Both the position numbers and the translations under genes were made by a program. The notes under the pieces are model-generated. The model saw only the letters and a program-made list of their open reading frames with translations. It had not been told where the DNA came from and did not search any database. 26,975 bases of DNA. Source: a virus. Lineage: Duplodnaviria; Caudoviricetes. Within the stretch, counting starts at the first letter, position 1. Each line of letters opens with the position of its first letter. Shown one piece after another: positions 4,519-26,975 of the stretch. Location of the stretch: the IMG/VR virus record IMGVR_UViG_3300020179_000149, positions 1 to 26,975 of that record. The stretch is one strand, 5' to 3'.

Positions 4519-4537
4519 ATTGGTCTGTGGTTATGCT
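4508..4537 (+). promoter_or_regulatory. Housekeeping-sigma promoter for whiB / primase operon
   Basis: TTGACA (4508-4513), 18-nt spacer, TATGCT (4532-4537), then 8 nt to ATG 4546. Confidence 0.7.
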
Positions 4538-4545
4538 TGGAGCCC

Positions 4546-5025
4546 ATGAACAAGAGCCTCCGCGCATCTCTCCCATTTGATTCATCCAAATCCGCTTGCC
4601 GTGAACACGGAGTTCGTGTCTTTTATCCAATCGTGGAAAAACCGACAATGTCAAATAGGATGCGTGCGTTAATTCAGGAAGCAAAAAAGATTTGCTCCAC
4701 ATGCGAAGTCAGGGAGCCCTGTCTCAACTATGCCTTAGAGAATGAGTCGCACGGAATTTGGGGTGGATTATCGGAAACGGAGCGACAATACCGTAGATTA
4801 GAACTAGGTATTACTTATAAACCGTGGGAAACAGGAAATGGTACCGAGGTGGAATCCATAAATGCGATTCGTGCCCGTCGTCGTTGGCGGGATGCTGAAC
4901 GAAAACGACGAGAACGTGAACGCAAATCAAAACAACGAGACGAACAAAATCCTGACCGAAAAAAGAGGCGCTCCAATGTCCAATACGAAGTGGTAATTGA
5001 AGATGAAATGATTGAATCAGAATGA
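4546..5025 (+). CDS. whiB: WhiB-family Fe-S transcriptional regulator with Arg-rich C-terminal extension
   Basis: Four Cys (AC...AKKICSTCEVREPCL) plus the HGIWGGLSETER turn motif. Confidence 0.93.
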   Translation: MNKSLRASLPFDSSKSACREHGVRVFYPIVEKPTMSNRMRALIQEAKKICSTCEVREPCLNYALENESHGIWGGLSETERQYRRLELGITYKPWETGNGTEVESINAIRARRRWRDAERKRRERERKSKQRDEQNPDRKKRRSNVQYEVVIEDEMIESE

Positions 5026-7570: not shown

Positions 7571-8401
7571 CTATGCGCTTGTAAAAGCGACCTTATCCTT
7601 CTGAGGGGAGCAAAACTCAGTAGTAATGACGGGGTGGGTTGAAACCACACATTCCCTCTTATCGGGAAGTTGTTCTTTTACCATCAATCTCATCAACCAT
7701 CTATCTGTTCCGTCATAGCGAGGCTGAAAAGGCTTCCTGCCGTGAGCAACTTGATGATTATCAATAATGAGAACATCACCATCTTCAAGAACAATTTCTT
7801 TTATATTCTCGTCAACTAATTTCTTAAAACATTCCAAAGCGGAATTCGCAACTTCGGTTTTCCCCCTCATCAGGTCTTCGTCAAAAATGAATCTAAACTT
7901 TTTGTGTTTGAAATTAATGACCGGCACCAACCATTCATCGTATTGTTTTTTGTTTTCCTTGAAGGATAAGTCGGGTTGGATATAAAATTGGGGGCGCATC
8001 AACTCGTACATCAATCCGACATCTATATTTCTTAAGATGTCCCCAAAATTCACGTATGTGGTTGGAGCATTCTTATCTCCGCGTAAACACATCAAAATAA
8101 GAACATCTGGCTTATGCGGATGAAATGCTGTTTCTGTGTGCATTTTCAGCAATGCTTTGGAAGATGAAGAAATTTGTGCGAATTCCGTTTTGGGATTGGG
8201 AAGTACGTGTTGAATCAGGCGACCGTTCTGCTCCTGTTTGTAGGCGACAGGGAAACCATAATGAGCGCCGAACTTCAACAACAAATCGGATGCCTGTTTA
8301 ACGATGTCATCGCTCATCGGTGGTATCAGCGGAGTCGCAGGAATCTGACCTATCTCAACGCCTTTGATTAGTGTTAGGGGTTCATTCGGTTCAATCGTCA
8401 T
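7571..8401 (-). CDS. Fe(II)/2-oxoglutarate dioxygenase, TauD/clavaminate synthase-like
   Basis: HTETAFHP (HxE), LMCLRGD, and GDVLIIDN...HGRKPFQPRYDGTDRWLMR. Start moved to ATG 8401 because 8391..8588 occupies the upstream region. Confidence 0.9.
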   Translation of the reverse strand: MTIEPNEPLTLIKGVEIGQIPATPLIPPMSDDIVKQASDLLLKFGAHYGFPVAYKQEQNGRLIQHVLPNPKTEFAQISSSSKALLKMHTETAFHPHKPDVLILMCLRGDKNAPTTYVNFGDILRNIDVGLMYELMRPQFYIQPDLSFKENKKQYDEWLVPVINFKHKKFRFIFDEDLMRGKTEVANSALECFKKLVDENIKEIVLEDGDVLIIDNHQVAHGRKPFQPRYDGTDRWLMRLMVKEQLPDKRECVVSTHPVITTEFCSPQKDKVAFTSA

Positions 8402-8588
8402 CCCGTTTGCCTTCTCTGCGTTTTCGTTTCGGCGCAAGGTCGTGAGTTCTGAGTGGATGACCGTACGGCAAGCGGGTTCTCCGTTTTCCTGCTTTGGTTC
8501 CCGGCACTGTCTCATACTCTTTTGTTAAGTAATTGAAGCGTGTTCGTTGTTGTGCCCCACGAGAAACTTTCTTATTTTTCTTTCCCAT
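8391..8588 (-). CDS. Small basic hypothetical protein
   Basis: 65 aa, Lys/Arg-rich. 1-bp overlap with the MazG gene and short overlap with the dioxygenase start. Confidence 0.65.
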   Translation of the reverse strand: MGKKNKKVSRGAQQRTRFNYLTKEYETVPGTKAGKRRTRLPYGHPLRTHDLAPKRKRREGKRDDD

Positions 8589-8929
8589 TACCTATTGTCT
8601 CCATCTCCACTTAAAGTATTTAACTGTTGACGCTTTAGAAGTTTTTCAATGTTGTCTCGGGCAACTAGACCCATATTCATATCAACCGCAGAACATAGTT
8701 GGGCAACATACCACAGAACATCGCCTATTTCCGCCGCTAGAGCCTGTTTCATTTCAACTGTCAATTTTGAATCGTGGTCACGAATAATTTTCTTTACTTT
8801 GCCCGCAACTTCACCTGCTTCTGACACAAGACCGAGCGAAAGATACTCCAACATTTTTTCTTTTGGGTAAATAGCAGTTTGACTTGTTCTCCATTGATAG
8901 TTCGTAAAATCCATTTCGTGCGCCTTCAT
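8588..8929 (-). CDS. MazG-like nucleoside triphosphate pyrophosphohydrolase
   Basis: LGLVSEAGEVAGKVKK...EIGDVLWY...NIEKL...LSGDGDNR. Confidence 0.93.
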   Translation of the reverse strand: MKAHEMDFTNYQWRTSQTAIYPKEKMLEYLSLGLVSEAGEVAGKVKKIIRDHDSKLTVEMKQALAAEIGDVLWYVAQLCSAVDMNMGLVARDNIEKLLKRQQLNTLSGDGDNR

Positions 8930-9931: not shown

Positions 9932-11320
9932 ATGGGGAATGAAACTGTGGTGATTGACGAATTGCAGAATAATGCCGTCCAAGAACAGCCCCTTGTGCTC
10001 AACCCAAAAATTCTTTTGGGTGATGTTCGAGAATCTTTAAAAAGTATTCCCGATGGGTCGATTCATTGCGTAGTCACATCTCCTCCGTATTGGGGTTTGC
10101 GTGACTACGGCACAGGCAAATGGGAAGGCGGAGACCCTAATTGTTCGCACAAACGCGATAGTAAACAAAGCGACAAAACATCCACTGGTCAAAGGAATTT
10201 AGAAGGCGCAATCGGGGACGGTATTTATAAATCCTATTGCCGTAGGTGTGGGGCAATCAGGATTGATAACCAACTTGGATTAGAACCAACATTTGATTCA
10301 TATGTGGAAGATATGGTTGGCGTGTTCCGCGAAGTGCGGCGCATCCTCCGTGATGATGGCACTTTGTGGCTTAATTTGGGTGACTCGTATGCGGGAAGCA
10401 ACGGTAACGGATGGAAACAAACCATTGCGTCCACAAATGCTTCCAATGCTGGTGGAGAGAATGAGGATTTTCGTTCCCGCATCGGGCGCGATGACGGCTA
10501 TCTGAAACCCAAAGATTTGGTCGGCATCCCGTGGCGTGTTGCTTTGGCTCTACAGCAAGACGGATGGTTTTTGCGACAAGACATCATTTGGCACAAACCA
10601 AATCCGATGCCAGAGTCAGTAACAGACCGATGCACCAAGGCACATGAATACATCTTCCTTCTGACAAAAAAGGCTAACTACTTCTTTGATTCGGAAGCAA
10701 TCAAGGAGCCCGCAAAATATCCGCACGATAATAGGGGTGCGAGGGCTGATAGTCGTAAAGAAGCAGGAATCCCTAATGCGATGCACGGGATGACGGGTGC
10801 GTTCAAAAACAAGCGGTCGGTGTGGACAATAAACACAAAACCCTATAAGGAAGCACATTTCGCAGTATTCCCAACAGACCTAGTGGAACCGTGCATCAAA
10901 GCAGGCACAAGTGAAAAAGGTTGTTGCGCATCATGTGGAACACCATGGGAAAGAATCGTTGATAGAAAAAGAATACGCAGAAACGAACTTCCCGAAGATG
11001 ACCCCCGTTACCGTCCGAATATATACGAGGGAGAGTACGAAGAAATCAATGGCAAGGGCGACGCTGGTTTTGTAGAAACACAAACACTTGGTTGGGGCAA
11101 AGCGTGCGAGTGCGAAACTGACGAAACGGTGCCGTGCACAGTTCTTGACACATTCTTCGGTTCGGGAACAACTGGTGTTGTTGCGTTGCGTCTTGGGCGC
11201 GACTATCTCGGCTGTGAACTTAATTCAGAATATGCAAAAATAGCGACAAAGCGTATAGCGGACGAAGAAGAAGAAATCAGAAAAGAAAAAGAAACGGAAC
11301 AACTTAGTCTTTTTGAGTGA
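9932..11320 (+). CDS. DNA methyltransferase, N4/N6 beta class, with two Cys-rich insertions
   Basis: VTSPPYWGLRDY, WLNLGDSY, WHKPNPMPESVTDR, HFAVFP and VLDTFFGSGTTG. Confidence 0.95.
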   Translation: MGNETVVIDELQNNAVQEQPLVLNPKILLGDVRESLKSIPDGSIHCVVTSPPYWGLRDYGTGKWEGGDPNCSHKRDSKQSDKTSTGQRNLEGAIGDGIYKSYCRRCGAIRIDNQLGLEPTFDSYVEDMVGVFREVRRILRDDGTLWLNLGDSYAGSNGNGWKQTIASTNASNAGGENEDFRSRIGRDDGYLKPKDLVGIPWRVALALQQDGWFLRQDIIWHKPNPMPESVTDRCTKAHEYIFLLTKKANYFFDSEAIKEPAKYPHDNRGARADSRKEAGIPNAMHGMTGAFKNKRSVWTINTKPYKEAHFAVFPTDLVEPCIKAGTSEKGCCASCGTPWERIVDRKRIRRNELPEDDPRYRPNIYEGEYEEINGKGDAGFVETQTLGWGKACECETDETVPCTVLDTFFGSGTTGVVALRLGRDYLGCELNSEYAKIATKRIADEEEEIRKEKETEQLSLFE

Positions 11321-14921: not shown

Positions 14922-14950
14922 TTGACAAACGCATTTCAAGACCGTACACT
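14922..14950 (+). promoter_or_regulatory. Near-consensus rightward promoter, leaderless
   Basis: TTGACA (14922-14927), 17-nt spacer, TACACT (14945-14950), then 7 nt to ATG 14958. Confidence 0.8.
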
Positions 14951-14957
14951 TATGGAT

Positions 14958-15527
14958 ATGAGTAATAGCACCAACACAACACAGCAACAACTACTTCTTC
15001 CTACGGTCAGGAACCTAGAGGAGTCTCGGGCGATTTGTCACGAGTTCTCTTCCGTTCTTACCGCAGGTCCGAGCAAATTGGAGGTCAAGGATTTCAACCA
15101 CCCTGACCACAAAATCGTGACATTTGATGATGTCGTGACACCCGATTGGGGTGATGCTCCAACCTTTGAGCATGTCCAAGAGATGATTGGGTGGGGTCAC
15201 GGTAGACAAAATCTACTTGTCCACTGTCATGCTGGCATAAGTCGCTCAACCGCTACGGCGTGGGGAATCGCAATCTCCAACGGATTCAACGAATACGACG
15301 CTTTCCACATGCTGAAGGCTAATCATCCAAGTATTTCGCGTCGCAATTGGTGGACTAACAAACAAGGCACGACTTTGAGCGATGTATATAAGCGCTCATT
15401 CTCACCAAATGAACTCATCGTTGAGCACCTTGAACGATTGTTTGGATTCAAGTCGGGTCGTCTAATCAAAATTCTGAGTCAGTCGTACGATTCATACATC
15501 AATCATGGCGACCTACTAGGGGAATAA
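14958..15527 (+). CDS. Cys-based (CX5R) protein tyrosine / dual-specificity phosphatase-like protein
   Basis: P-loop LLVHCHAGISRSTA, upstream FDDV acid loop and downstream SPNELIV. Confidence 0.9.
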   Translation: MSNSTNTTQQQLLLPTVRNLEESRAICHEFSSVLTAGPSKLEVKDFNHPDHKIVTFDDVVTPDWGDAPTFEHVQEMIGWGHGRQNLLVHCHAGISRSTATAWGIAISNGFNEYDAFHMLKANHPSISRRNWWTNKQGTTLSDVYKRSFSPNELIVEHLERLFGFKSGRLIKILSQSYDSYINHGDLLGE

Positions 15528-16360: not shown

Positions 16361-16774
16361 TTACTTGGTTTTGAACTCTGTCCAAGTTTTATCGCCTACA
16401 CCAAAATATTCTCTCGCATATCCTGCTTGGATAATGTCCGTATTTAGGCACGCTGTTTTGGGGTCGTCAACCTTGTCTGAAGAGAAAATTCGGGCAAGTA
16501 TGCGACCATACTTGTCGTTCTTGTCGGGGATTGTGTTCACATAAACCCATTGATGGTTTGTCAGCCAATCTGAAGTGAACGATTTTGCTTTCAAGCCCAT
16601 TTCTTTTTCGGCAAGGTCCTTTGTTCGCGATTCGGGGGTGTTCACACCGTACAGTCGCACACGAATCTTGTGGTGGATATTGAATCCAAGGTCAATCATC
16701 AAATCAATAGTGTCGCCATCAATAACCTTCAGCGGTTTGGCACCGTACCAAAATCTTTCACTCATCTTTATCAC
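16361..16774 (-). CDS. Thermonuclease (staphylococcal nuclease-like)
   Basis: KVIDGDTID, RVRLYGVNTPE, DKYGRILA and IQAGYAREY. Start is GTG 16774 or ATG 16765. Confidence 0.92.
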   Translation of the reverse strand: MIKMSERFWYGAKPLKVIDGDTIDLMIDLGFNIHHKIRVRLYGVNTPESRTKDLAEKEMGLKAKSFTSDWLTNHQWVYVNTIPDKNDKYGRILARIFSSDKVDDPKTACLNTDIIQAGYAREYFGVGDKTWTEFKTK

Positions 16775-17080: not shown

Positions 17081-18631
17081 TCACCCAACCACTATTATAC
17101 GAAAAGAAAGTTGTTTAGAACCTGCCTTGTTGCTCTTAAAATAACGACCACCAGAAATATGGTGCGAGCCACCCATTTCATACAAATTGTCATCATCTGC
17201 TGTAATCATTCCCTCTATTTGTGAGCGCGACGAACCTTGGAGACGCTTGGCAAGTTCGTCAGGCAATATTCCCGCCTTCTGTTTGGGAAAATCACCCCTC
17301 GCTAAAACAAAAGCGTTTTGCCCCCTTGTTTCCATTGCCAGAGCACCATGAACCGATTCTGGCATCATTGACTTGTGAGCCTGATACGCCGCCTCCTCTC
17401 CATGTCGGTCAAATCCACGCCCTGTGGCGAGATGTCCAAACACATCGTGAACAGCCCTGAACTTGTCGTTTGTGTCGTCATCCCAATATGGATGAGAACC
17501 AGTCACCGATGTTTTCATAACCTTGAGCCGTTTGTTCTCAACAACATCTTTTCGCATTGAATGGAATCCGTCATAGGGGTCGTAGTCCACAAACTCTACG
17601 GTTATACCCATTTCTCTTAGCATTTCAAATTGACGCTCAACTTCTTCTTTGAGTTCGTCATACGCTTTTTTTGCTTTTTCATCAACCTCTGGCTGTAGGT
17701 CGTAATGGTCGGCAATTCGTTGTCTTTTCTCAGGCGCAACTGCTACAACATCACTGAAATCACCTTTCAAATGTTTAGCAAACATTGGAATAGGTTCAGC
17801 CAATTGCATGGTCACATTCTCAGGACCAGTTTTATCCATATTCTTGGGTTCCACAATGGTGGGTTTGGCATTAGTGACAGATGGTTTTCTCTTTGACCGC
17901 ATTATTTCTACTATCGGGTCAAAGGTATACCAAGGAATCGTATCTGCCCCATCGCCATCGGTCGTCAAAAAAACGTTTTCCCACTCCCCTGTTTCTTTAG
18001 CCCTCCACAACCTCTCAAGAAAAGCAATTGACTTTTGATTCTGCGCTTTACCTAACTCGTAAGCCCGTTCCCTGTTTTGTTCATTGTTTTCATAGATGTC
18101 AACAACATCAATATAAAACATCCCATTTTCAATCCAAGCCCCAACCCCAACTTGCCTCGCACCCTCTAGCGGTTCGTCAAAAACTCTCTCCCCGTGATAT
18201 TCCATCCATGCAATCACGCGGTCAACCGCATCCTCACGAACCTCGCCATTCTCATCAAAAACCTTATCCATATCCACCGACATACCGTGCTTATTCCTGC
18301 CAACCGATATGCCTTGCTTGACATCAATTTCAAGATTTCTATCCGCAGTGAAACCACCAGACTTTGCCTCAATTAGCCATTTGCGAACAATTTCCGATTT
18401 TTGGGGGCTATCTTGTCTTAATTCAAATTTTTTTATACGAAAACTACGAAGAGTGTTGATGGCATAACTAACTGCCGTAGCAAGGGGTGTTTTGTCCTCG
18501 TCGCTACCCGGCATGGTGAACATTCCGTCACCATCTCCATCTTTGGGAAATTTGGGTTTCCCACCAAGCGCAACACGTCGTATGTTGCCGATGTTCAGTC
18601 CAAGGATTTTTACTTTAATTTCGTCAGGCAT
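17081..18631 (-). CDS. Multidomain head-region protein with DxDxDG motif and C-terminal HDxxGH (zincin-like) domain
   Basis: KDGDGDG near the N-terminus, a middle GGFT...GAW...YIDV...LG..QNQ.SI domain, and C-terminal NDKFRAVHDVFGH...GF...GEEAAY..H...ETRGQN. Confidence 0.8.
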   Translation of the reverse strand: MPDEIKVKILGLNIGNIRRVALGGKPKFPKDGDGDGMFTMPGSDEDKTPLATAVSYAINTLRSFRIKKFELRQDSPQKSEIVRKWLIEAKSGGFTADRNLEIDVKQGISVGRNKHGMSVDMDKVFDENGEVREDAVDRVIAWMEYHGERVFDEPLEGARQVGVGAWIENGMFYIDVVDIYENNEQNRERAYELGKAQNQKSIAFLERLWRAKETGEWENVFLTTDGDGADTIPWYTFDPIVEIMRSKRKPSVTNAKPTIVEPKNMDKTGPENVTMQLAEPIPMFAKHLKGDFSDVVAVAPEKRQRIADHYDLQPEVDEKAKKAYDELKEEVERQFEMLREMGITVEFVDYDPYDGFHSMRKDVVENKRLKVMKTSVTGSHPYWDDDTNDKFRAVHDVFGHLATGRGFDRHGEEAAYQAHKSMMPESVHGALAMETRGQNAFVLARGDFPKQKAGILPDELAKRLQGSSRSQIEGMITADDDNLYEMGGSHHISGGRYFKSNKAGSKQLSFRIIVVG

Positions 18632-18648
18632 CAAAAATAATTATCCCA

Positions 18649-18725: not shown

Positions 18726-20042
18726 TTACGGAGCCGCGTCGAATGTGACCTTGACGAACGCTTCTGGACGCTTGACAGCAAGCGCTAGGCGCTGCTCGGC
18801 GAGAATCACAATCGCGTTGCGCACGAAGAAGTCCGCGTGCTGTTCGCTGATGCGAATGTTCGCCGTCTCGCGGTCGTAGATTTGCGCCGCGGTGCCGAAC
18901 GCGCCAACGAGGGCTGTTCCTTCGGCAATTGCGGGCGTGTCCACAATCGGGATGCGCCAGATTCTTGGCTGACCACCAAGGGCGACCGATACAGCAACGA
19001 GGTACTGACCGTTGTCATCCTTGGACAGTTCAATGTCTTCCCAGTCGTTCGGGTGCATCACGACGCCTGTCGGCTCGTAGTACGCCAAGAAGGACAGGGT
19101 CGCGGCGCGACGGATTGCATCCGCCTTGAGGTCGCCTACGCCACCCGCAGACCACGAGTAGGTCTGGATACCGGTGGTGTTGAGCACGCCTTCAAGGTTT
19201 TCGCCGGTGCCGTCGCCGTTGAGGATTTGGGTGTCCTCAAGGAGGCGCAGACCGTACATCAGTTCGTTGTCGATGATGCTACGGAGTTGCGGCTCATCGG
19301 CAAGGACATTGCGGTGAGCGGCTTCCCAGTGAGCCATCGTGCGAACCGGTGCCTGATGTCCAGTGAACTTCAGACCCGACTGCGGCTTGGTGGCGAACAC
19401 TGCGGGCGTACCCGAGCGCTCAGCAACAGTTGCCGCGTTGTTGGTCGGAGGCGTCATGCCAGCCGGGGAGGTGTAGCCGATTTGACGGAAGTACTCAATC
19501 ACGGCAGCGTTGGTGGTGCGCTTCGGGAAGAGGTCGCGGACGCGACGGGTACGAGTCGGGGCAACGACCATCGGGTCGCGCTGGAACGTACCGAACTGCT
19601 CAACCGACGAAAGTGGCGACGCCGGACCAGTTGGCATACCCGTGAAGACATCCTTCACGTTGTACTCAAACGGGGCAGGCATGTTGGCGCCATTGCGACC
19701 TGACTTCAGGGACTTGAACTCCTCTGAAGCGAGGAACGCTTCACCGATGCTCTTGATTTCACGCGAGGTCAGTTGCTGAACTGGCTGAGCGGCGGCGCTT
19801 GCGACCGACTCAGAGGCGGGCTGTGAAGCCCACTTCTCTGCATCGCGCATGCTCTCCATGCCTTCAATCAGGCTCTTGATTTCGCGGATGTCCGACATGT
19901 TGCGGTCGAACGCGCTCTTTTGTTCGGCAGAAACAACAACCGTGCCGTCTTCAACTTTGAATGAGTCGGCGATGGTCTTGTTGTCTGTCATCTTTTCGCG
20001 AAGTGCGGTTTGCAGTTCGCGAAGGCGAATGTCATCAGACAT
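18726..20042 (-). CDS. Major capsid protein, HK97 fold, with N-terminal delta/scaffold region
   Basis: Coiled-coil N-terminus, RVRDLFP, ILNGDGTGENLEG, VMHPNDW..I...KDDNGQY, IWRIPIV and FVRNAIVILAEQRLALAVKRPEAFVK. Strong AGGAGG RBS and GC-biased codon usage. Confidence 0.96.
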   Translation of the reverse strand: MSDDIRLRELQTALREKMTDNKTIADSFKVEDGTVVVSAEQKSAFDRNMSDIREIKSLIEGMESMRDAEKWASQPASESVASAAAQPVQQLTSREIKSIGEAFLASEEFKSLKSGRNGANMPAPFEYNVKDVFTGMPTGPASPLSSVEQFGTFQRDPMVVAPTRTRRVRDLFPKRTTNAAVIEYFRQIGYTSPAGMTPPTNNAATVAERSGTPAVFATKPQSGLKFTGHQAPVRTMAHWEAAHRNVLADEPQLRSIIDNELMYGLRLLEDTQILNGDGTGENLEGVLNTTGIQTYSWSAGGVGDLKADAIRRAATLSFLAYYEPTGVVMHPNDWEDIELSKDDNGQYLVAVSVALGGQPRIWRIPIVDTPAIAEGTALVGAFGTAAQIYDRETANIRISEQHADFFVRNAIVILAEQRLALAVKRPEAFVKVTFDAAP

Positions 20043-20172: not shown

Positions 20173-21294
20173 CTAAGAGAGTTTGTGTCGCCTGACAACA
20201 TTTTGCGGACAACAACCATCAATAATCTTTACACCGTTTGTTCCATCGGTGAAATAGCCGTCTTTCTTGACTGATTTGACATCCTTGGATGGGTGGTTGT
20301 CGGGAACCAAATCAAAGTCCATTCGTGAACCGCGAGGCATCGGCTCATCCGAACTCATCGCCTTGAGGAAAGTCAATACACGCTTCTTGGCATCTGCCTC
20401 AGAACCAGCAATCAACCCGCGCAAATATACCTGCTTAACATCACGCAAATTAGTTTTGTAAGCCTGCTTCTTGGCGGACGCATTATGTTTACGCACAAGA
20501 ATTGCTAAATCATTAATGGTCTCGCTGCTCACATTTGGCAAACGTTTTTTGGGTCGGGTAACCATTTTTTGTTGCACATCACGCAAACCATCAAAAGATT
20601 TCTTGCCGGTTCGTACACGAGGATTCTTCTTCGGCGACCTATCTGTCCGCAGACCCATAACCCTGTTGTAGTCAGAACCGTTAGAGCATGGCAACCAAAC
20701 GGTTTTGCCGTCACTAGCCGTATATCGCCTGATTCCGATACACCCCAAGTTTCTTGCCCGTACACGGGCAGAGTCGGGGTTTTGAAACACATCGGGGTCG
20801 GTTGACCTACTCACACGATTAACGAAACTCTTGCCCTCCATATTTGAATCAGGACAACAGTTCTCGGACTTGGCAGAAACAAGACCACCATCAGGCAAAG
20901 TTTCAATACCCGCAACACCTCGTTCCCGTAGGGGGTCAAACCGCTCAGTTGCCACACACGGCGCATAGTACTTGTGTCCACCAAAAACAATCGTCCGCAC
21001 ACCCTTACATCCACGCTTGCGGGATGCTTCCTCTGCCATTGCACGAGTCTCGTACATTTCGCCAGATTTTGATTCTGCTAGAGCAGAGCGATGCTCCAAC
21101 TCTGTTCTAGGGATACGAAAACTTTTCGCTGATGCTTTACGCATCTCATTGGAGCCCTTGCGAACCGAAAGAAACTCATCGTGAGAGGCACATGGCATCC
21201 ATGACCCGTCATGCTCATGCGCACCGCGGCAACCGAGTTGACGGGCAACCATGAGTGCCTGCTCCCGAGTTACTTTGGGTTTTTCGTCGCTCAT
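20173..21294 (-). CDS. Head-region protein with three GC.G...PC repeats (DUF3721-like)
   Basis: ARQLGCRGAHEHDGSWMPC, SRKRGCKGVR...YYAPC and ARNLGCIGIRR...VWLPC. AAGGAAG RBS. Confidence 0.8.
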   Translation of the reverse strand: MSDEKPKVTREQALMVARQLGCRGAHEHDGSWMPCASHDEFLSVRKGSNEMRKASAKSFRIPRTELEHRSALAESKSGEMYETRAMAEEASRKRGCKGVRTIVFGGHKYYAPCVATERFDPLRERGVAGIETLPDGGLVSAKSENCCPDSNMEGKSFVNRVSRSTDPDVFQNPDSARVRARNLGCIGIRRYTASDGKTVWLPCSNGSDYNRVMGLRTDRSPKKNPRVRTGKKSFDGLRDVQQKMVTRPKKRLPNVSSETINDLAILVRKHNASAKKQAYKTNLRDVKQVYLRGLIAGSEADAKKRVLTFLKAMSSDEPMPRGSRMDFDLVPDNHPSKDVKSVKKDGYFTDGTNGVKIIDGCCPQNVVRRHKLS

Positions 21295-21302
21295 TTGCTT
21301 CC

Positions 21303-21605
21303 TTAGATATTTATGACCGCGTAGCCAAGTTTCTTGATGATGGCATCAATTTTAATTTTTGCTTCACCCGAGTATTCGCCTTCTTCGGAATCGTAATAAC
21401 TGAAACCCGTCGTCAAACCTTCCAAACTTTTGAAGAACTTGTTTGGTCTTGGGTCTGAATAAATCTTTTTGGAAAACTCATAAAATGTAATGTCGTCTTC
21501 TTTGCTGTTTGAAAACTGACGAACACCATCCCTCACCTCAATGAAAACAATCGGCATGCCTTTGAAGTTAAGGATTTCCGATGGGGTGAACATGCGATAC
21601 TTCAT
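21303..21605 (-). CDS. Small hypothetical protein, candidate immunity protein for the upstream kinase
   Basis: 100 aa, starting 9 nt after the stop of the kinase-domain gene. The function is inferred only from position. Confidence 0.7.
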   Translation of the reverse strand: MKYRMFTPSEILNFKGMPIVFIEVRDGVRQFSNSKEDDITFYEFSKKIYSDPRPNKFFKSLEGLTTGFSYYDSEEGEYSGEAKIKIDAIIKKLGYAVINI

Positions 21606-21614
21606 AAAACAATT

Positions 21615-24308
21615 TTATCCTTTCAGAATGATTGTGGTTATTTCTTCAGGGTCGGCGTCCATCAACCATTGCAGACGCTTATCGGTATAGGCGACCATAT
21701 GGTCAGGTTTATTTCCCTTAATTTTTCGTGGGTTACCCGGTGTGCCCGCTGCTTCCATTACTTCCTTGCCGAACAGTGCAAATTGTACTTTTTCTTGATT
21801 TTCACGCAAGCGTCGCTGAACCGCAATCACCTGTTCTTTAACTTGCTGACGAGTTAATTCTCCATCTTTAACCCTGGCACGAATTCCATTAAGGATATTA
21901 TTTCTGCCAGCAGCACCATCCACCCAATGTTTTAGACCTTCTGCATTTGCGTAGTCTTTATCGTCAGCAAACATACCTGCTTGATGGAAAGTTAAAGACA
22001 TATCAATCGGCACAATACGCCTCAAGCCATTTGAGTCACGAACCACGAAATAATTTCCGCCGTGTCTGTCCACATTCAAAATTGCATAATCCAAAAGGGT
22101 CAACGCAACGCCGTCCTCAACATTTACGTCACGCATGTCATCAAACATTGCTGGCTGCCCAATTTGGTCCAACACATAGTTAGACACATGTTCAAACAGA
22201 ACTGCTCGTCCGTCGCCTTTGTTATCTTTATAGACGGAACCCACAAAACGGAAACCACCAACAGGAAAACCCATTCTTCCGGCAATATTATTCCCTAAAA
22301 CTTCGGCAACATCTTCTTGTTCTCCGTGTGCGCGCCGTTTTTCGTATTTCAACAAATATTGTTTACCAGTTGTTCTATCGGTAAACACACGCATCTCCCC
22401 GTTGATGCCGCCCCTCATTTGCCCGATTTCGTAACGCTTGTCTGACTTTGGTCCGAAAGGACCGTTAGGGTCCTTGTCTGCGTTTGCCTCAAGTGCGCTA
22501 ATGACAAAAACATCGGGTACATCTCGCAAGTCCCCACCATTTTTCAGATGTTCTGCAGCCTGTTCAGCACTACTGATTTTTGTGTTCGGTTCTACCGCTT
22601 TCCCTGCGGGAAGACCGTCATCGCCAAGGGGAGCCAGTTTGTTGTCTTCTTTATTTTGTTTTCCGCCAATCTCTGCGGTCTTCACCTTCGGTGCATCTCC
22701 ATCGGCTTTCGGTTTATTTTTCTTGGGTGAAGTTGGCGGTTTCGGAGGAGTCGGAGTGGGAGCCCTTGGGTTTGACGGCGGAGTTTCGGGTGGCTCTGGC
22801 TTTCTCCACGGCGGGTCGTCAACGGCTTTTTGGAACATCTCGTTTTCTAAATCACGTCGCCTGATGTCTTGTTTGTTCAGAATGATTCTGCGAAGAGCAC
22901 CCTCTCGTTCTCCGGCTGACCGATTTTTTTCGCGGAGAAAGTCTATGTCTTTACTTATGCGTTCAGCCGCCCCACGCTTTTCTTGGTCGTTGATTGCGAT
23001 ACGTTCTTTAAGTTCTTCAACATCTCCCCAATTTCCGTCGCGCACTTCGTCTTCAAATCTGTCTTGAGCGTCCAAAGTGAATTCTTGTTCTTCCCAAAGA
23101 CTCTTCATTCGTTGAAAGTCATCATTGTCGAGACGGTCTATGTTTCCCCTCTCAAGCAACATATTGATATTGTCAAACAAAATATTAAACGCTTCGTCGC
23201 CGTCCGTAGGTGTGCTCGGTTTCTCTGGTGTGGGGGTACTTGGCTTTTTCGGTTCAGGCTTTTTCGCTGTTGGTTTCTTGCGTTTTGGTTTCGGTTCTGG
23301 CTTGACAGACGGTTCCATCGGTTCACCAGTAGGGCGCTTCCCCGCAGTTTCTTTAGCCCTTTCTTCTGACGCTCGTCGCCTACGGGCTCGTGCAGGACGC
23401 TTTGGTTTCGGTTCAACGATTTCTTCTGAACCCGTACGGGGTGCGCCAGGTTCCTCTAACTCTCTGCGCACTCTACGACGCTCAGAGTCGCGCAAACCTT
23501 CATCGCGTGCGTCGGAATCAAAACCACCTCCGCGTACACCACCCCTACGTCGTGGTGCAGGCTTCTTTGGCGCACGAGGCTCTTTCGGTGCGTCACCACC
23601 TTCAAGTGCTTCCGCAACTCCACGCAAACCCCGCTCAATGCGACCACCCTCCTCTGCCCGACCAAGGCGTTGCAACATTCTTCGGTTACGGCGCTCAAGC
23701 CGACGTCCGCGTCGTCTATCGTCAACATTTTCCAATCGTTCACCGATGTTGGTAATAGCATTGGCGATTCTTCGTGCTACACCCCAACCGCAATTTCGTC
23801 CGAATCTGTCGGTTATCTGCCCACCATATCGCGTGCCAACTGGACATCGCCATCCGCCGCGACGACCAGTGCCAGGAATTGAGAGACCCGGGTCCCAAAG
23901 TGCTCTTACTCGTTTTACCTCATAATTGAAAGTTGTCTTGCGTGATTCTGATACGAATGCGCGTGCCTTAAACTGAATTGTTTCGCGTTTTTCGTTTGCG
24001 GAAAAGTATTTAATCGGTATATCAGAAACAGATATTTTTTCTGCAAATTTTTCTTTTGGTTTGGGTTCGCGTCGGAGAGCCTGTGCAACAAGCGTTTCGG
24101 GCATTGGACCTTCTACGGTCATCCCGCGGTCAAGAGCGACGCTTAGTTCCTGTTTTGTTATTTTTGAATTTTTGTATTCATCTTTGAAAGCGTCAACCAA
24201 CCCTTTGGAATCTTCGGCGATTGCGCGAAAAGTCGTTCCAACATCCGATGTTGTGGCGACGAAGTACGGCTTGTCTTCGCGGTTTCTGACGATAAATGCA
24301 GTTTTCAT
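21615..24308 (-). CDS. Large multidomain protein with C-terminal PI3/4-kinase/HipA-like kinase domain
   Basis: RGGING (Gly loop), QYLLK, EDVAEVLG, LLDYAILNVDRHGGNYF and IVPIDMSLTF. N-terminal WDPGLSIPG...WRCPVGTRYGGQITDRFGRNCG domain and Pro/Lys-rich linkers. Start taken at ATG 24308. Confidence 0.85.
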   Translation of the reverse strand: MKTAFIVRNREDKPYFVATTSDVGTTFRAIAEDSKGLVDAFKDEYKNSKITKQELSVALDRGMTVEGPMPETLVAQALRREPKPKEKFAEKISVSDIPIKYFSANEKRETIQFKARAFVSESRKTTFNYEVKRVRALWDPGLSIPGTGRRGGWRCPVGTRYGGQITDRFGRNCGWGVARRIANAITNIGERLENVDDRRRGRRLERRNRRMLQRLGRAEEGGRIERGLRGVAEALEGGDAPKEPRAPKKPAPRRRGGVRGGGFDSDARDEGLRDSERRRVRRELEEPGAPRTGSEEIVEPKPKRPARARRRRASEERAKETAGKRPTGEPMEPSVKPEPKPKRKKPTAKKPEPKKPSTPTPEKPSTPTDGDEAFNILFDNINMLLERGNIDRLDNDDFQRMKSLWEEQEFTLDAQDRFEDEVRDGNWGDVEELKERIAINDQEKRGAAERISKDIDFLREKNRSAGEREGALRRIILNKQDIRRRDLENEMFQKAVDDPPWRKPEPPETPPSNPRAPTPTPPKPPTSPKKNKPKADGDAPKVKTAEIGGKQNKEDNKLAPLGDDGLPAGKAVEPNTKISSAEQAAEHLKNGGDLRDVPDVFVISALEANADKDPNGPFGPKSDKRYEIGQMRGGINGEMRVFTDRTTGKQYLLKYEKRRAHGEQEDVAEVLGNNIAGRMGFPVGGFRFVGSVYKDNKGDGRAVLFEHVSNYVLDQIGQPAMFDDMRDVNVEDGVALTLLDYAILNVDRHGGNYFVVRDSNGLRRIVPIDMSLTFHQAGMFADDKDYANAEGLKHWVDGAAGRNNILNGIRARVKDGELTRQQVKEQVIAVQRRLRENQEKVQFALFGKEVMEAAGTPGNPRKIKGNKPDHMVAYTDKRLQWLMDADPEEITTIILKG

Positions 24309-24388
24309 TTGGGTCTTTCCAATGGTCTGCCAACACCATGCAGACGGTGTTCCAATAATACCATTCACCCAAACAGGGCGTAATGTAA

Positions 24389-24706
24389 CTATTTTTTTTG
24401 ATTATTTGATTTTGAAGGGAGTTGCCCTTTGAGTTTCGTTAACGCATCATCAATCTCTTTTTGAGAAGCGTTTTCTTTCAAAGAAACATTGTATTTGGAC
24501 ATCCCTGTTGAAAGCGCGATTCGTGCTTTGTAGGGAGTGGAAAACACGGTCTTGGCTGCGTCGTTATACCTAGAACTATCTTCCTCTGCGCCAGACAAAT
24601 GGTAACGTTTCCACTTGTTTGCTGCGGTCACAACAACAACCTCATACAAAAATGGTGGCTCCTCTTCGTCAGGAGATGTTACTTGTAGGAGATACGGAAA
24701 GCCCAT
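24389..24706 (-). CDS. Small hypothetical protein, candidate immunity protein for the upstream kinase
   Basis: 105 aa with an AGGA RBS, starting 17 nt after the stop of the second kinase-domain gene. Confidence 0.7.
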   Translation of the reverse strand: MGFPYLLQVTSPDEEEPPFLYEVVVVTAANKWKRYHLSGAEEDSSRYNDAAKTVFSTPYKARIALSTGMSKYNVSLKENASQKEIDDALTKLKGQLPSKSNNQKK

Positions 24707-24723
24707 GTGTTTATCCTAGTCAA

Positions 24724-26973
24724 TTAATTGAATTGTCTGATAAGGTCTTCTTTGTGTCGCTTCAAATAGTCTAGTCTGTCAGCGACAATACGGCGAATAG
24801 CGTTTAAATGGTTTATTTCTGCCTGTGTAAGTTTCATGCCCGCTTGTTCCAGTTCCTGTTGAGACATAATTTGTTCAAGTTGTTTTTCCAAAACTCTTAT
24901 GGTGCGGTCAACGGTTCGCGCAAATCGTTCTCTGGCTTCTTGGCTCTGATGATTGAATCCTAAGCGTTTCAAACCCTCAATACCGTTATTCCATTCGTCA
25001 TGATATCCTCGTACGCCATCACGTTGCAGTCGTGCGCGATGATTTGCCACTTCGTCCTCCCATCGGTCTAGGCTTGGGGGGTTAACATCGTCTGCATCAA
25101 CCTCACCCTCTATTCCGCGACCATATGCGATTAGTCCGTGGTCAATTAACCCCAAACGGGCTTTGCCGTTCTGGTCAACCGTATACATAAAGTTTCCTCC
25201 GTGTCGGTCGCCATTTTTGAACACAAAATCCAACACGGAAATTCGCGCTGCGTCTTCAGGCGCTATATCTTCTGCGCCAACTTTAGGGTCACGCGGTAGT
25301 TTTTTGACGTCAGCCCATTCCTGTTGGGGCTTGACGCCTGCTCCGTGGTCCCAATCCATGATTCCACGCATCATCATCCACCGATGTCGTTTCCCTGTGT
25401 CCGCGTCTACTATTTCTTTTCCGATGCGCAAGTGTGCTCTGTCATTTCCTAATTGTATTGCTTCGGCGGCGCGCATCCCGATGCTCTCAAGCATCGCTCC
25501 GTGGTGACCATATACGGCTGCTTTGACAAACCAGGTTTGTCCAGTCCGTTTATCTCTTACCTTAACAACATCCCAAACACCGTTACCGCTACCGCCGGGA
25601 TGAACCTTGATTAACTCGAAATTGAATCTCCTGTTTTCCATTTCGCCACCCTCAGCCATGAACGCACTGAAACCCTTCGTCTGTAAATCTTCTTTGCTCG
25701 GAACATCTTTCTCATCAAAAATCATATTTTTGTTGCCGACATATGCAAGGCTTTCGTCAAACAATGCGTCAACAATCACCTCGTCAGCAACATCTTCTAT
25801 GGATACACCTTGATTTCCTTCGTGAACAGCCTTGACAGCATCTTCATAATTTCTAATCCGTATAGACCCTGGTCTACGAATCGGTGATGGTTCATTCGGA
25901 ACTATCAAACCACTGCCGTCAAATGTTTCGGTTTGCTGTGGTGCGACCTTGTCTAGGTGAGCGTCATATTGTTTGACCATCTTGTCAAGCGCGTTCATTT
26001 CTGCAGCGTGAACGTTTACGGAGTCCATTCTGTCTTTAAGTTCTTGCTGTTCGCGCTGAGACAATGCATCTAGTTTCTTTCCTTCGTATTCTTTCAATTT
26101 TAATTCAAGTATTTTCTGTGCAGCATCATACCCCTGACGCCATCTCAATGAAGCGTCGGCTATTTGATTGCGTCTCTTTCTCAACTCTTCAGGTGTCATT
26201 TGCGCAATATCGTTATCGGCAAATCCCAAGTACATTTTTTCTTTATTTTTGGCAAGCGTTTTAATTCTTGCTCTATATGCATCTCGTGTTTCTCCAGCAA
26301 GAGACCCGTCCTGCGGAATAATTTTTTCTAATGGAACTTGGTCTGCTGAACCGCCAAGAACGTTGACTGCTTCTGTTGGGCTCGGCACTCTCATATCTGG
26401 TGCTTCTGGTGCTTCTTCCAAAAACCCTTCATCCCTCTTCTTTAGTGCCCTGGCAACGAGTTCGCGCCTACGTCCAATATCCTGCTGAATTCTTGCAATA
26501 GCACCCAAAATTTCGTTTTGCCTTCGCTTGCTCAATTCGCCACCGCGGGTTGTTCGCTGGTCGCGGAGTTGTTTCATCATATTTGCCAACGTTGCTTGAT
26601 GCGCAATAATTGACCTTCGTTCGTCAAACATGAATTGTTCGGCTTTTTGAATATCGGTTATTTCAGCAATTCGCTTTTCATCAAGTTCTTTAATTCGCGC
26701 CCGTGCCCCTTTTTGTCCTTCATATTCTTGACGGATAAGATTTCTTTCCCCTTCATCAAGTTGTCGCCATCCCATACCGAGTGCTTCAATGAGTTCCTCA
26801 ACTGACGAGAAATTGTCAGCGTTCGCCGTATTCGCTTTTGGTGTTTTTGGTTTTTCTTTTTCTTTGTCTTGCGCAAGAATCGCGTTAAAAATCTGACCGC
26901 CTCGTGGATTCAGTTTCCCATTACGGTCATAAAACTGACCTAGGGCAGCCTCAATCTTTGCCCTATCTTCGTC
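24724..26973 (-). CDS. Large coiled-coil protein with C-terminal PI3/4-kinase/HipA-like kinase domain (5' truncated by window edge)
   Basis: PGGSGNG, TWFVK, MLESIG, VLDFVFKNGDRHGGNFM and LGLIDHGL. The frame stays open upstream of ATG 26775 to the window edge (DEDRAKIEAALGQFY...ELIEALGMGW). Confidence 0.85.
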   Translation of the reverse strand, partial: DEDRAKIEAALGQFYDRNGKLNPRGGQIFNAILAQDKEKEKPKTPKANTANADNFSSVEELIEALGMGWRQLDEGERNLIRQEYEGQKGARARIKELDEKRIAEITDIQKAEQFMFDERRSIIAHQATLANMMKQLRDQRTTRGGELSKRRQNEILGAIARIQQDIGRRRELVARALKKRDEGFLEEAPEAPDMRVPSPTEAVNVLGGSADQVPLEKIIPQDGSLAGETRDAYRARIKTLAKNKEKMYLGFADNDIAQMTPEELRKRRNQIADASLRWRQGYDAAQKILELKLKEYEGKKLDALSQREQQELKDRMDSVNVHAAEMNALDKMVKQYDAHLDKVAPQQTETFDGSGLIVPNEPSPIRRPGSIRIRNYEDAVKAVHEGNQGVSIEDVADEVIVDALFDESLAYVGNKNMIFDEKDVPSKEDLQTKGFSAFMAEGGEMENRRFNFELIKVHPGGSGNGVWDVVKVRDKRTGQTWFVKAAVYGHHGAMLESIGMRAAEAIQLGNDRAHLRIGKEIVDADTGKRHRWMMMRGIMDWDHGAGVKPQQEWADVKKLPRDPKVGAEDIAPEDAARISVLDFVFKNGDRHGGNFMYTVDQNGKARLGLIDHGLIAYGRGIEGEVDADDVNPPSLDRWEDEVANHRARLQRDGVRGYHDEWNNGIEGLKRLGFNHQSQEARERFARTVDRTIRVLEKQLEQIMSQQELEQAGMKLTQAEINHLNAIRRIVADRLDYLKRHKEDLIRQFN

Positions 26974-26975
26974 AC

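Follow-up and report, generated by a model that had tools for sequence, protein, structure and literature searches.

A putative polymorphic effector/partner array with kinase-like domains in the head module of lake-water phages

The closest described counterparts of the system considered here are the MuF toxins, head-module toxins of temperate phages with downstream immunity, for which the published accounts describe a small downstream gene behind 89.4% of the toxin genes (Jamet 2017, PMC5576092; Paulet 2025, PMC12226406). We analysed a 26,975-nt virus record (IMGVR_UViG_3300020179_000149, positions 1-26,975; Duplodnaviria; Caudoviricetes), henceforth the window, in which two large genes ending in kinase-like domains, K1 and K2, are each followed by a short open reading frame (ORF), S1 and S2. 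As judged from sequence comparisons, these belong to a polymorphic effector/partner array, in which an N-terminus, termed the RCP domain, is shared and the C-terminus and the small gene behind it are exchanged together. As in the MuF toxins so described, the genes lie in the head module (here between the S78 prohead protease and capsid genes), with a conserved N-terminus, a variable C-terminus and a small downstream gene; the specificity of that gene and the joint exchange by recombination are further general characteristics of polymorphic toxins. Unlike in the MuF toxins, the cargo proteins are devoid of a MuF domain, which occurs on the portal fusion, and several full-length cassettes stand in tandem rather than singly. 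Furthermore, kinases dominate here, whereas the word 'kinase' is missing from the main text of one MuF-toxin paper (PMC5576092), and MuF toxins are described from temperate phages, whereas here neither an integrase (five related genomes) nor a prophage copy was found.

Several other phage and bacterial systems share individual elements with the array. In the 'Gratiaviridae', one HipA-family kinase gene per genome is described from five Bacteroidetes phages, with genes for an AAA ATPase and a glycosyltransferase next to it (Benler 2021, PMC8008677). It resembles the genes studied here in encoding a HipA-like kinase between portal and capsid genes; an array, a shared leader, swapping and partner genes are unmentioned for it in the relevant portions of that paper, and the two systems are set apart by description only. 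HipBST and hipJS, as outlined in PMC8262856, likewise combine a HipA-superfamily kinase core with an alpha/beta partner of ~100 amino acids (aa). Unlike HipBST, with its adjacent helix-turn-helix (HTH) protein HipB, we detected no Pfam HTH match in S1, S2, K1, K2 or the DUF3721 gene that follows them. Polyvalent proteins are also large, probably capsid-packaged and furnished with modifying enzymes, including kinases and GNATs, in cassette-like variation (Iyer 2017, PMC5512222). Their kinases, reported there from Verrucomicrobia and Bacteroidetes phages, lack the C-terminal subdomain, whereas the C-lobe is kept here, and unlike in polyvalent proteins as there described each enzyme has its own partner gene. 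With the T7 kinase and T4 Alt, too, phages modify proteins of the host early, and Alt is packaged in the head (PMC5512222), but both are single genes, not polymorphic and without a cognate small partner gene. The T7 kinase is further described as a member of another kinase family that is expressed early rather than packaged (PMC8008677), and a broad counter-defence role has been reported for it (bioRxiv 2024.12.20.629319). In the literature searched, mostly outside subscription papers and with supplements excluded, we found no description of the array, the RCP domain or the partner families; the domain lists that supplement PMC5512222 and PMC3482391 may be relevant to how novel the RCP domain is.

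Anatomy of the array and its shared N-terminal domain

The elements of the window to which we refer are the following:

24724..26975, minus strand: K1, a cargo gene of 1638 aa, of which the window has the 3' 749 codons (from ORFs, Pfam and near-identical contigs); the RCP domain lies outside the window, followed by a charged helical middle and a C-terminal kinase-like domain at ~24727-25626
24389..24706, minus strand: S1, the K1-clade partner ORF of 105 aa, which is hypervariable within the lake population
21615..24308, minus strand: K2, 897-aa cargo gene with a partner-like N-terminal domain (NTD), RCP domain, Pro/charge-rich linker and C-terminal kinase-like domain
24060..24308, minus strand: K2 NTD, ~residues 1-83, predicted beta-beta-beta-alpha-alpha-beta-alpha, S2-like
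23727..23993, minus strand: RCP domain of K2, common to the cargo genes
21618..22517, minus strand: kinase-like domain of K2, catalytic motifs intact, of the Fam20/PI3-4K/CtkA/HipA-like superfamily
21303..21605, minus strand: S2, 100-aa partner ORF of the K2 clade, with a confident model and no clear solved-structure match
20173..21294, minus strand: DUF3721-repeat gene, 373 aa, conserved boundary on the downstream side of the array
18726..20042, minus strand: HK97-type major capsid protein with an N-terminal leader
4537..5025, plus strand: WhiB gene, actinobacterial host marker, given for context and outside the array

The spacers measure 17 nt between K1 and S1 and 9 nt between K2 and S2, in agreement with the initial annotation of this DNA, which had placed a small ORF 9-17 nt behind each kinase gene. 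An in-frame GTG at 24368 would extend K2 to 917 aa; the ATG at 24308 (897 aa) is the most likely start, as in the related loci L001 and L004. That annotation had also described a tandem pair upstream of the capsid gene. The positions are right, but the 373-aa DUF3721 gene intervenes, and the pair is the end of a longer array. This could be followed beyond the window end with the locus L030, which is 99.97% identical to the window across 13,239 nt; L040 comes from the same contig as L030, and L091 is 99.94% identical to L040. In these loci the gene order starts with a portal-MuF fusion, the S78 prohead protease, a scaffold-like gene and a 1202-aa HExxH cargo gene with a 74-aa ORF. It continues with a 450-aa RCP protein, K0 (1923 aa) with a 116-aa ORF (S0) and K1 with S1, and ends with K2 and S2, the DUF3721 gene and the capsid gene. 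K1/S1 and K2/S2 are the last two of four effector/small-ORF cassettes between prohead protease and capsid gene. The same gene frame was seen again across the fetched loci, with 16 distinct cassette strings, some including unclassified genes, among 46 array-spanning loci. Contigs of the sequencing runs X1 and X22-X24 diverge from the window just past S1 (24391-24393) or the K2 NTD (24031), suggesting that other cassette arrangements are present in the same samples.

K1 and K2 had been regarded as highly divergent outside their kinase domains. This does not hold, because they share an N-terminal domain that is 74% identical over ~97 aa (K1 is cut by the window end). In K0, K1 and K2 this ~90-aa domain has a W-R-C-P-x-G...Q-I-T-D...C core and 74-80% identity, and its consensus reads YKA..F..YEVKRVRA.WDP.LSIPG..RRGGWRCP.GTRYGGQITDRFGRNCGWG. 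Variant forms of the core are found in the 1202-aa gene and the 450-aa gene (subtypes A and P), so that the RCP domain is present as three subtypes (R, A and P). The RCP profile retrieved 268 representatives at E<=0.001 among 1.84 billion, and 130 of the 135 listed representatives of at least 600 aa belong to C-terminal classes found in our loci. The earlier suggestion of a non-MuF N-terminus was borne out by this conserved domain: full-length K0, K1, K2, slot-A and P proteins gave no match to Phage_Mu_F, and the one match (E 1.8e-8) is at the C-terminal end of the portal fusion and carries no toxin tail. More distant relatives (L123, L127-L137 and L150-L163) have genes of 850-2900 aa in the same slots, with leaders that the R profile missed.

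Two lysine columns, F/Y-K-A and V/I-K-R/G, are invariant in 52/52 R-type RCP leaders, and in K2 they lie at 23964-23972 and 23910-23921. Inspection by eye showed similarly placed lysines in the listed leader rows of the A type (19) and the P type (33). Compared by eye and without a statistical control, the motifs resemble those in 5/5 protease leaders and in capsid leaders. HK97-type proteases typically cut after lysine. The motifs are presented here as candidate prohead-protease sites, and the RCP domain as a putative trafficking module. In phage SPN3US, cleavage of internal head and ejection proteins by the prohead protease has been described (PMC10052503). The S78 prohead protease itself (L091:1266-3935; L024:694-3036) has a long, variable C-terminal extension that includes DUF6321, with a total length of 525-1139 aa among relatives.

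With modest confidence, we favor the view that the large proteins are packaged cargo, serving as kinase effectors in the next host. The cargo would be made late, each small protein binding and silencing its own enzyme during late synthesis; the RCP leader would load the large proteins into the procapsid, and the prohead protease would trim them at the lysine motifs. Once ejected into the next host, the cargo would act before the partner is made again, the kinases phosphorylating host proteins of the defence or gene-expression machinery.

Pairing and joint exchange of C-termini and small genes

Relatives were collected as the best profile-search matches of five scans, the last two represented by their best 80 matches each, which gave 163 loci. 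We used 333 cargo genes that were complete at the 3' end and had 420 nt or more of sequence beyond it; collapsing them at 90% C-terminal identity left 142 (75 R, 36 P and 31 A) in 28 C-terminal clusters. An ORF of 60-180 aa follows every one of the 59 non-redundant kinases with an intact DRHxxN motif. Among all A- and R-type cargo genes, it is seen behind 98/106, but behind none of the 36 P genes. Of the eight exceptions, one is an exonuclease, five are truncated, split or without an enzyme, and two have a ParB-like tail; both ParB-like genes precede a decayed kinase remnant with its small ORF. In one of these (L099:5851-9300) the ParB-like tail displaced the kinase, of which a decayed ORF of 253 aa is left, with a small ORF of 124 aa behind it.

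The small ORFs co-vary with the C-termini that they follow. Leaving out L067 (here and in the swap comparison below), a split kinase counted among the 98, the best small-ORF match lay within the same C-terminal clade in 90/91 cases, and in 73/75 once pairs with at least 40% identity were removed, against 6-8 expected by chance. Given that neighbouring genes are co-inherited anyway, swapping is the decisive test. Among 97 genes, we found 66 pairs in which the N-termini are 70-94% identical over at least 200 aa and the C-terminal class differs; the scores between their small ORFs are at background (median 29, maximum 42), versus a median of 349 in 56 same-class pairs. Five pairs were chosen from the top of the swap list; in these the 5' part of the gene is 71-89% identical at the DNA level, and this identity ends before the kinase and returns no more than 32 nt from the small-ORF stop (5/5). 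The swapping of C-termini with co-varying small ORFs, which had been proposed as a check, was thereby observed. Joint loss is seen as well: in L005 and L006 the K2 body and S2 are gone together, and only the first 97 K2 residues remain, as a separate 97-aa ORF. The anatomy of the array, its shared N-terminus and intact motifs, and this co-variation, co-swapping and co-loss are direct observations on the sequences.

Five partner homologues are orphans, standing behind another cassette without an enzyme of their own (four of the K6 type and one of the GNAT-like type). Together with the diversity of cassette strings noted above, they would fit a use of the enzymes inside the producing cell: expressed late and left unpackaged, these would strike co-infecting phages, with the partners protecting self and the orphans guarding against rivals. 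A similar role has been proposed, in the account of the 'Gratiaviridae', for the HipA-like kinase encoded between the portal gene and the capsid gene (PMC8008677). We consider this improbable, as it leaves unexplained both the shared N-terminus, with its invariant lysine motifs like those of protease and capsid leaders, and the linkers of 600-1500 aa.

Kinase-like domains, pseudokinases and partners

The kinase motifs were confirmed where they had been reported, with DRHGGN at 22053-22070 and IDMSL at 21993-22007 in K2, DRHGGN at 25192-25209 and IDHGL at 25132-25146 in K1, and Gly loop, beta3 Lys and helix-C Glu motifs in both. In an alignment of 24 K2-related kinases, K57, E72, D150-R151-H152, N155 and D172 are invariant (24/24). 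The assignment to the DRHxxN kinase superfamily was likewise upheld in searches with profile hidden Markov models (HMMs), in which Pfam PI3_PI4_kinase (PF00454) matched K1 at E 2.2e-6, above the cut-off, and K2 at E 0.011, below it; the domain also matches phrog_3162. Because of the PF00454 matches and the recurrence of the pairing in 59/59 non-redundant intact kinases, the motifs are not chance occurrences. By these sequence criteria the domains are members of the atypical kinase superfamily that comprises Fam20, PI3-4K, CtkA and HipA. They fall into at least seven clades with ~20% mutual identity, and K1 and K2 align within the window only near the catalytic loop (34% over 87 aa). About 100-150 residues are retained past the ID motif in 27/27 aligned domains, with the helical C-lobe kept. 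Kinases split by a frameshift in L060, L067 and L092 may be assembly errors. A tblastn search with the K2 kinase and RCP domain against 50,697 GenBank phage records gave no match.

The best match among profiles of solved structures is Caenorhabditis elegans Fam20 (4kqa, E 1e-5 to 1e-4), with PI3K, PI4K, TOR and CtkA weaker. That such matches (E 1e-5 to 0.1) are to eukaryotic Fam20 and PI3/4-kinases might suggest enzymes aimed at eukaryotic grazers eating infected cells or virions, in the manner of a Trojan horse, and a role of this kind has been proposed for freshwater-phage ADP-ribosyltransferases in the text of PMC6802176. We think this most improbable. The matches are weak and do not reach beyond the catalytic loop, the closest Atlas clusters (matching at 0.94-0.96, with 0.94 to the PF00454 and PF20613 clusters) are bacterial or phage proteins, and no translocation domain was detected in domain searches of the cargo proteins. 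Moreover, a eukaryote-specific enzyme would need no cognate partner inside a bacterial cell. Grazers had been named among the conceivable targets, and our searches otherwise returned nothing in their favor.

Enzymes other than kinases also occupy the C-terminal position. Library matches identify DUF3626 (L056), an RNase_T exonuclease (L158) and a ParB-like PHROG (L099). Further tails we take from their motifs to be GNAT-like, zincin-like (HExxH) and ART-like, labels that Pfam, NCBIfam, PHROGs and PDB profiles left unconfirmed.

Twenty-two P genes end in a pseudokinase without DRHxxN (for example L012:2595-4739 and L024:7464-9680), and in five aligned examples the beta3 Lys, the His, the Asn and the ID Asp are lost. 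They probably represent one lineage, and the pseudokinase has been lost from the lineage of the window. A separate small gene was found behind none of them (0/22), which is not a clean control for immunity in view of the following result. The next cargo protein starts with an NTD of 80-100 aa in 20/22 cases after a pseudokinase, versus 5/11 after P genes without one (Fisher p 0.008, on related sequences); K2 and K0 start with such an NTD. Compared by element order, the NTD and S2 models agree, and both match BFVD A0A6J5NIJ3 (E 8.9e-7 and 0.084), but the likeness in sequence is weak (HHalign 3%, E 0.01-0.02; HMM independent E-value 0.093). If the NTD is homologous to S2, a dead kinase keeps a partner, which points to docking. 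The small proteins would then be cognate docking or chaperone subunits (or decoy substrates), and the pseudokinase/NTD pair would chain the cargo for packaging or ejection. The near-invariant Tyr within an S-Y motif of the S2 family can also be cited for this. Against it stand, besides that weak likeness, three features typical of immunity genes: every one of the unrelated enzyme classes comes with a small ORF of its own, also unrelated, enzyme-less truncated cargo genes have none, and orphan partners exist. We hold docking as the sole role of the small proteins to be unlikely; partners that silence their enzymes may, from the models, also dock cargo.

The two small ORFs had been reported to show no likeness to each other. 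BLAST indeed finds no similarity between S1 and S2, although profile comparison links their families weakly (HHalign 13-14%, E 2e-3, 66 columns). Homology links the partner families of the kinase clades K2, K5 and K6 (HHalign 91-95% with that of K2), and the partner families of other enzyme classes are unrelated by profile comparison. The S2 model (predicted local distance difference test 92.7) consists of three strands, two helices, a strand and a helix, and had no clear match among solved structures.

Rates of change differ along the array. Between the window and L004, a single pair compared by the Nei-Gojobori method, the ratio of nonsynonymous to synonymous change is 0.75 in both the K1 kinase and S1, 0.51 in the K2 kinase and 0.32 in S2, versus 0.15 in the K2 N-terminus, 0.12 in the DUF3721 gene and 0.06 in the capsid gene. 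S1 differs between the window and L001 by 9 amino-acid changes and 7 silent changes among 94 codons, and K2 by 0 and 3 among 897. All 24 listed runs containing the stretch are lake-water metagenomes, possibly from a single campaign. Among the 40 best-supported of 206 population differences in four runs, 24 fall in S1. In one contig of run X23, S1 holds 14/17 differences, with no more than 3 in the ~700 nt that span the spacer and the K1 C-lobe. Of the S1 codons touched by the listed differences, 13/16 have an altered residue; K2, S2 and the DUF3721 gene are nearly invariant.

Proposed role, host and neighbouring genes

For the packaged, partner-silenced effector that we favor, we infer packaging, cleavage, ejection, kinase activity and its substrate, binding, inhibition and toxicity from the arrangement and behavior of the genes. 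Several points weigh against it. The case for virion presence, activity and toxicity of the cargo is indirect, and that for packaging and cleavage draws on array position, the by-eye likeness of the leader lysines and the lysine specificity of HK97-type proteases. A pseudokinase needs no inhibitor, yet it precedes a partner-like NTD, which fits docking better than inhibition, and the orphan partner homologues complicate a pure inhibitor reading. The hypervariability of S1, next to a K1 C-lobe that barely varies, is a further complication that a strict lock-and-key pair would not predict. Finally, the swap, loss, orphan and pairing counts are not independent events, because the sequences are related.

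WhiB is present in 5/5 related records of 114-145 kb, and has been put forward as a marker of actinobacterial hosts (PMC6802176); the host is likely to be actinobacterial. Neither a tyrosine integrase (PF00589) nor a serine recombinase (PF07508) was found in these five records, four of which are at least 90% complete (the window genome is incomplete), and they gave no tail-sheath match. A scan of GTDB genomes returned no prophage copy, with one spurious 27-aa match (L164). From their gene content, the phages look lytic.

A broader picture, speculative and on balance doubtful, would be that of a lytic lake-phage lineage with a capsid-packed arsenal of enzymes, its own inhibitors, orphans that disarm rivals, a pseudokinase-NTD docking clamp, converted from a kinase-inhibitor pair, that connects cargo proteins, and a new, protease-cleaved RCP delivery module. 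If true, it would make the array a polymorphic toxin system of phage against phage, with a new means of delivery. Through the effector/partner array as such, the polymorphic toxins would gain a new delivery N-terminus and would reach into apparently lytic phages of lake actinobacteria, MuF toxins having been reported from temperate phages only. The array also offers kinase-like phage domains of at least seven clades, together with cognate small partners whose fold is unmatched. The natural swaps, deletions, orphans and pseudokinase make the role of head-packaged phage toxins, for which host takeover, counter-defence and phage-phage conflict are candidates, testable with matched pairs. The RCP leader might be usable as a capsid-loading tag.

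Adjoining the array, the DUF3721 repeats (20173-21294) bear Cys/His pairs (GCxGxHxH...WxPC); the gene ranges from 232 to 1194 aa among relatives and is fused to an NTD in L016. Right after the capsid gene, at 17081-18634, lies a 517-aa gene (phrog_3170, E 1e-43) with an HDVFGH motif, which is kept in close relatives and absent from the same place in others (e.g. L010 and L024). A distance of 6 kb separates the kinases from a dual-specificity phosphatase-like gene at 14922-15527 (HCxAGxSRS; Pfam DSPc, E 2.7e-6), a possible counterpart of them. Pfam identifies WhiB, ribonucleotide reductase, primase-helicase and HK97-type capsid genes in the window, which also encodes a TauD-like dioxygenase and two N6/N4 DNA methyltransferases (7571-8515; 1470-2207; 9932-11320), MazG (8588-8929) and a thermonuclease (16361-16774). 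The first kilobase is strongly G+T-skewed, with a GC skew of 0.45 and an AT skew of -0.46 at positions 1-500.

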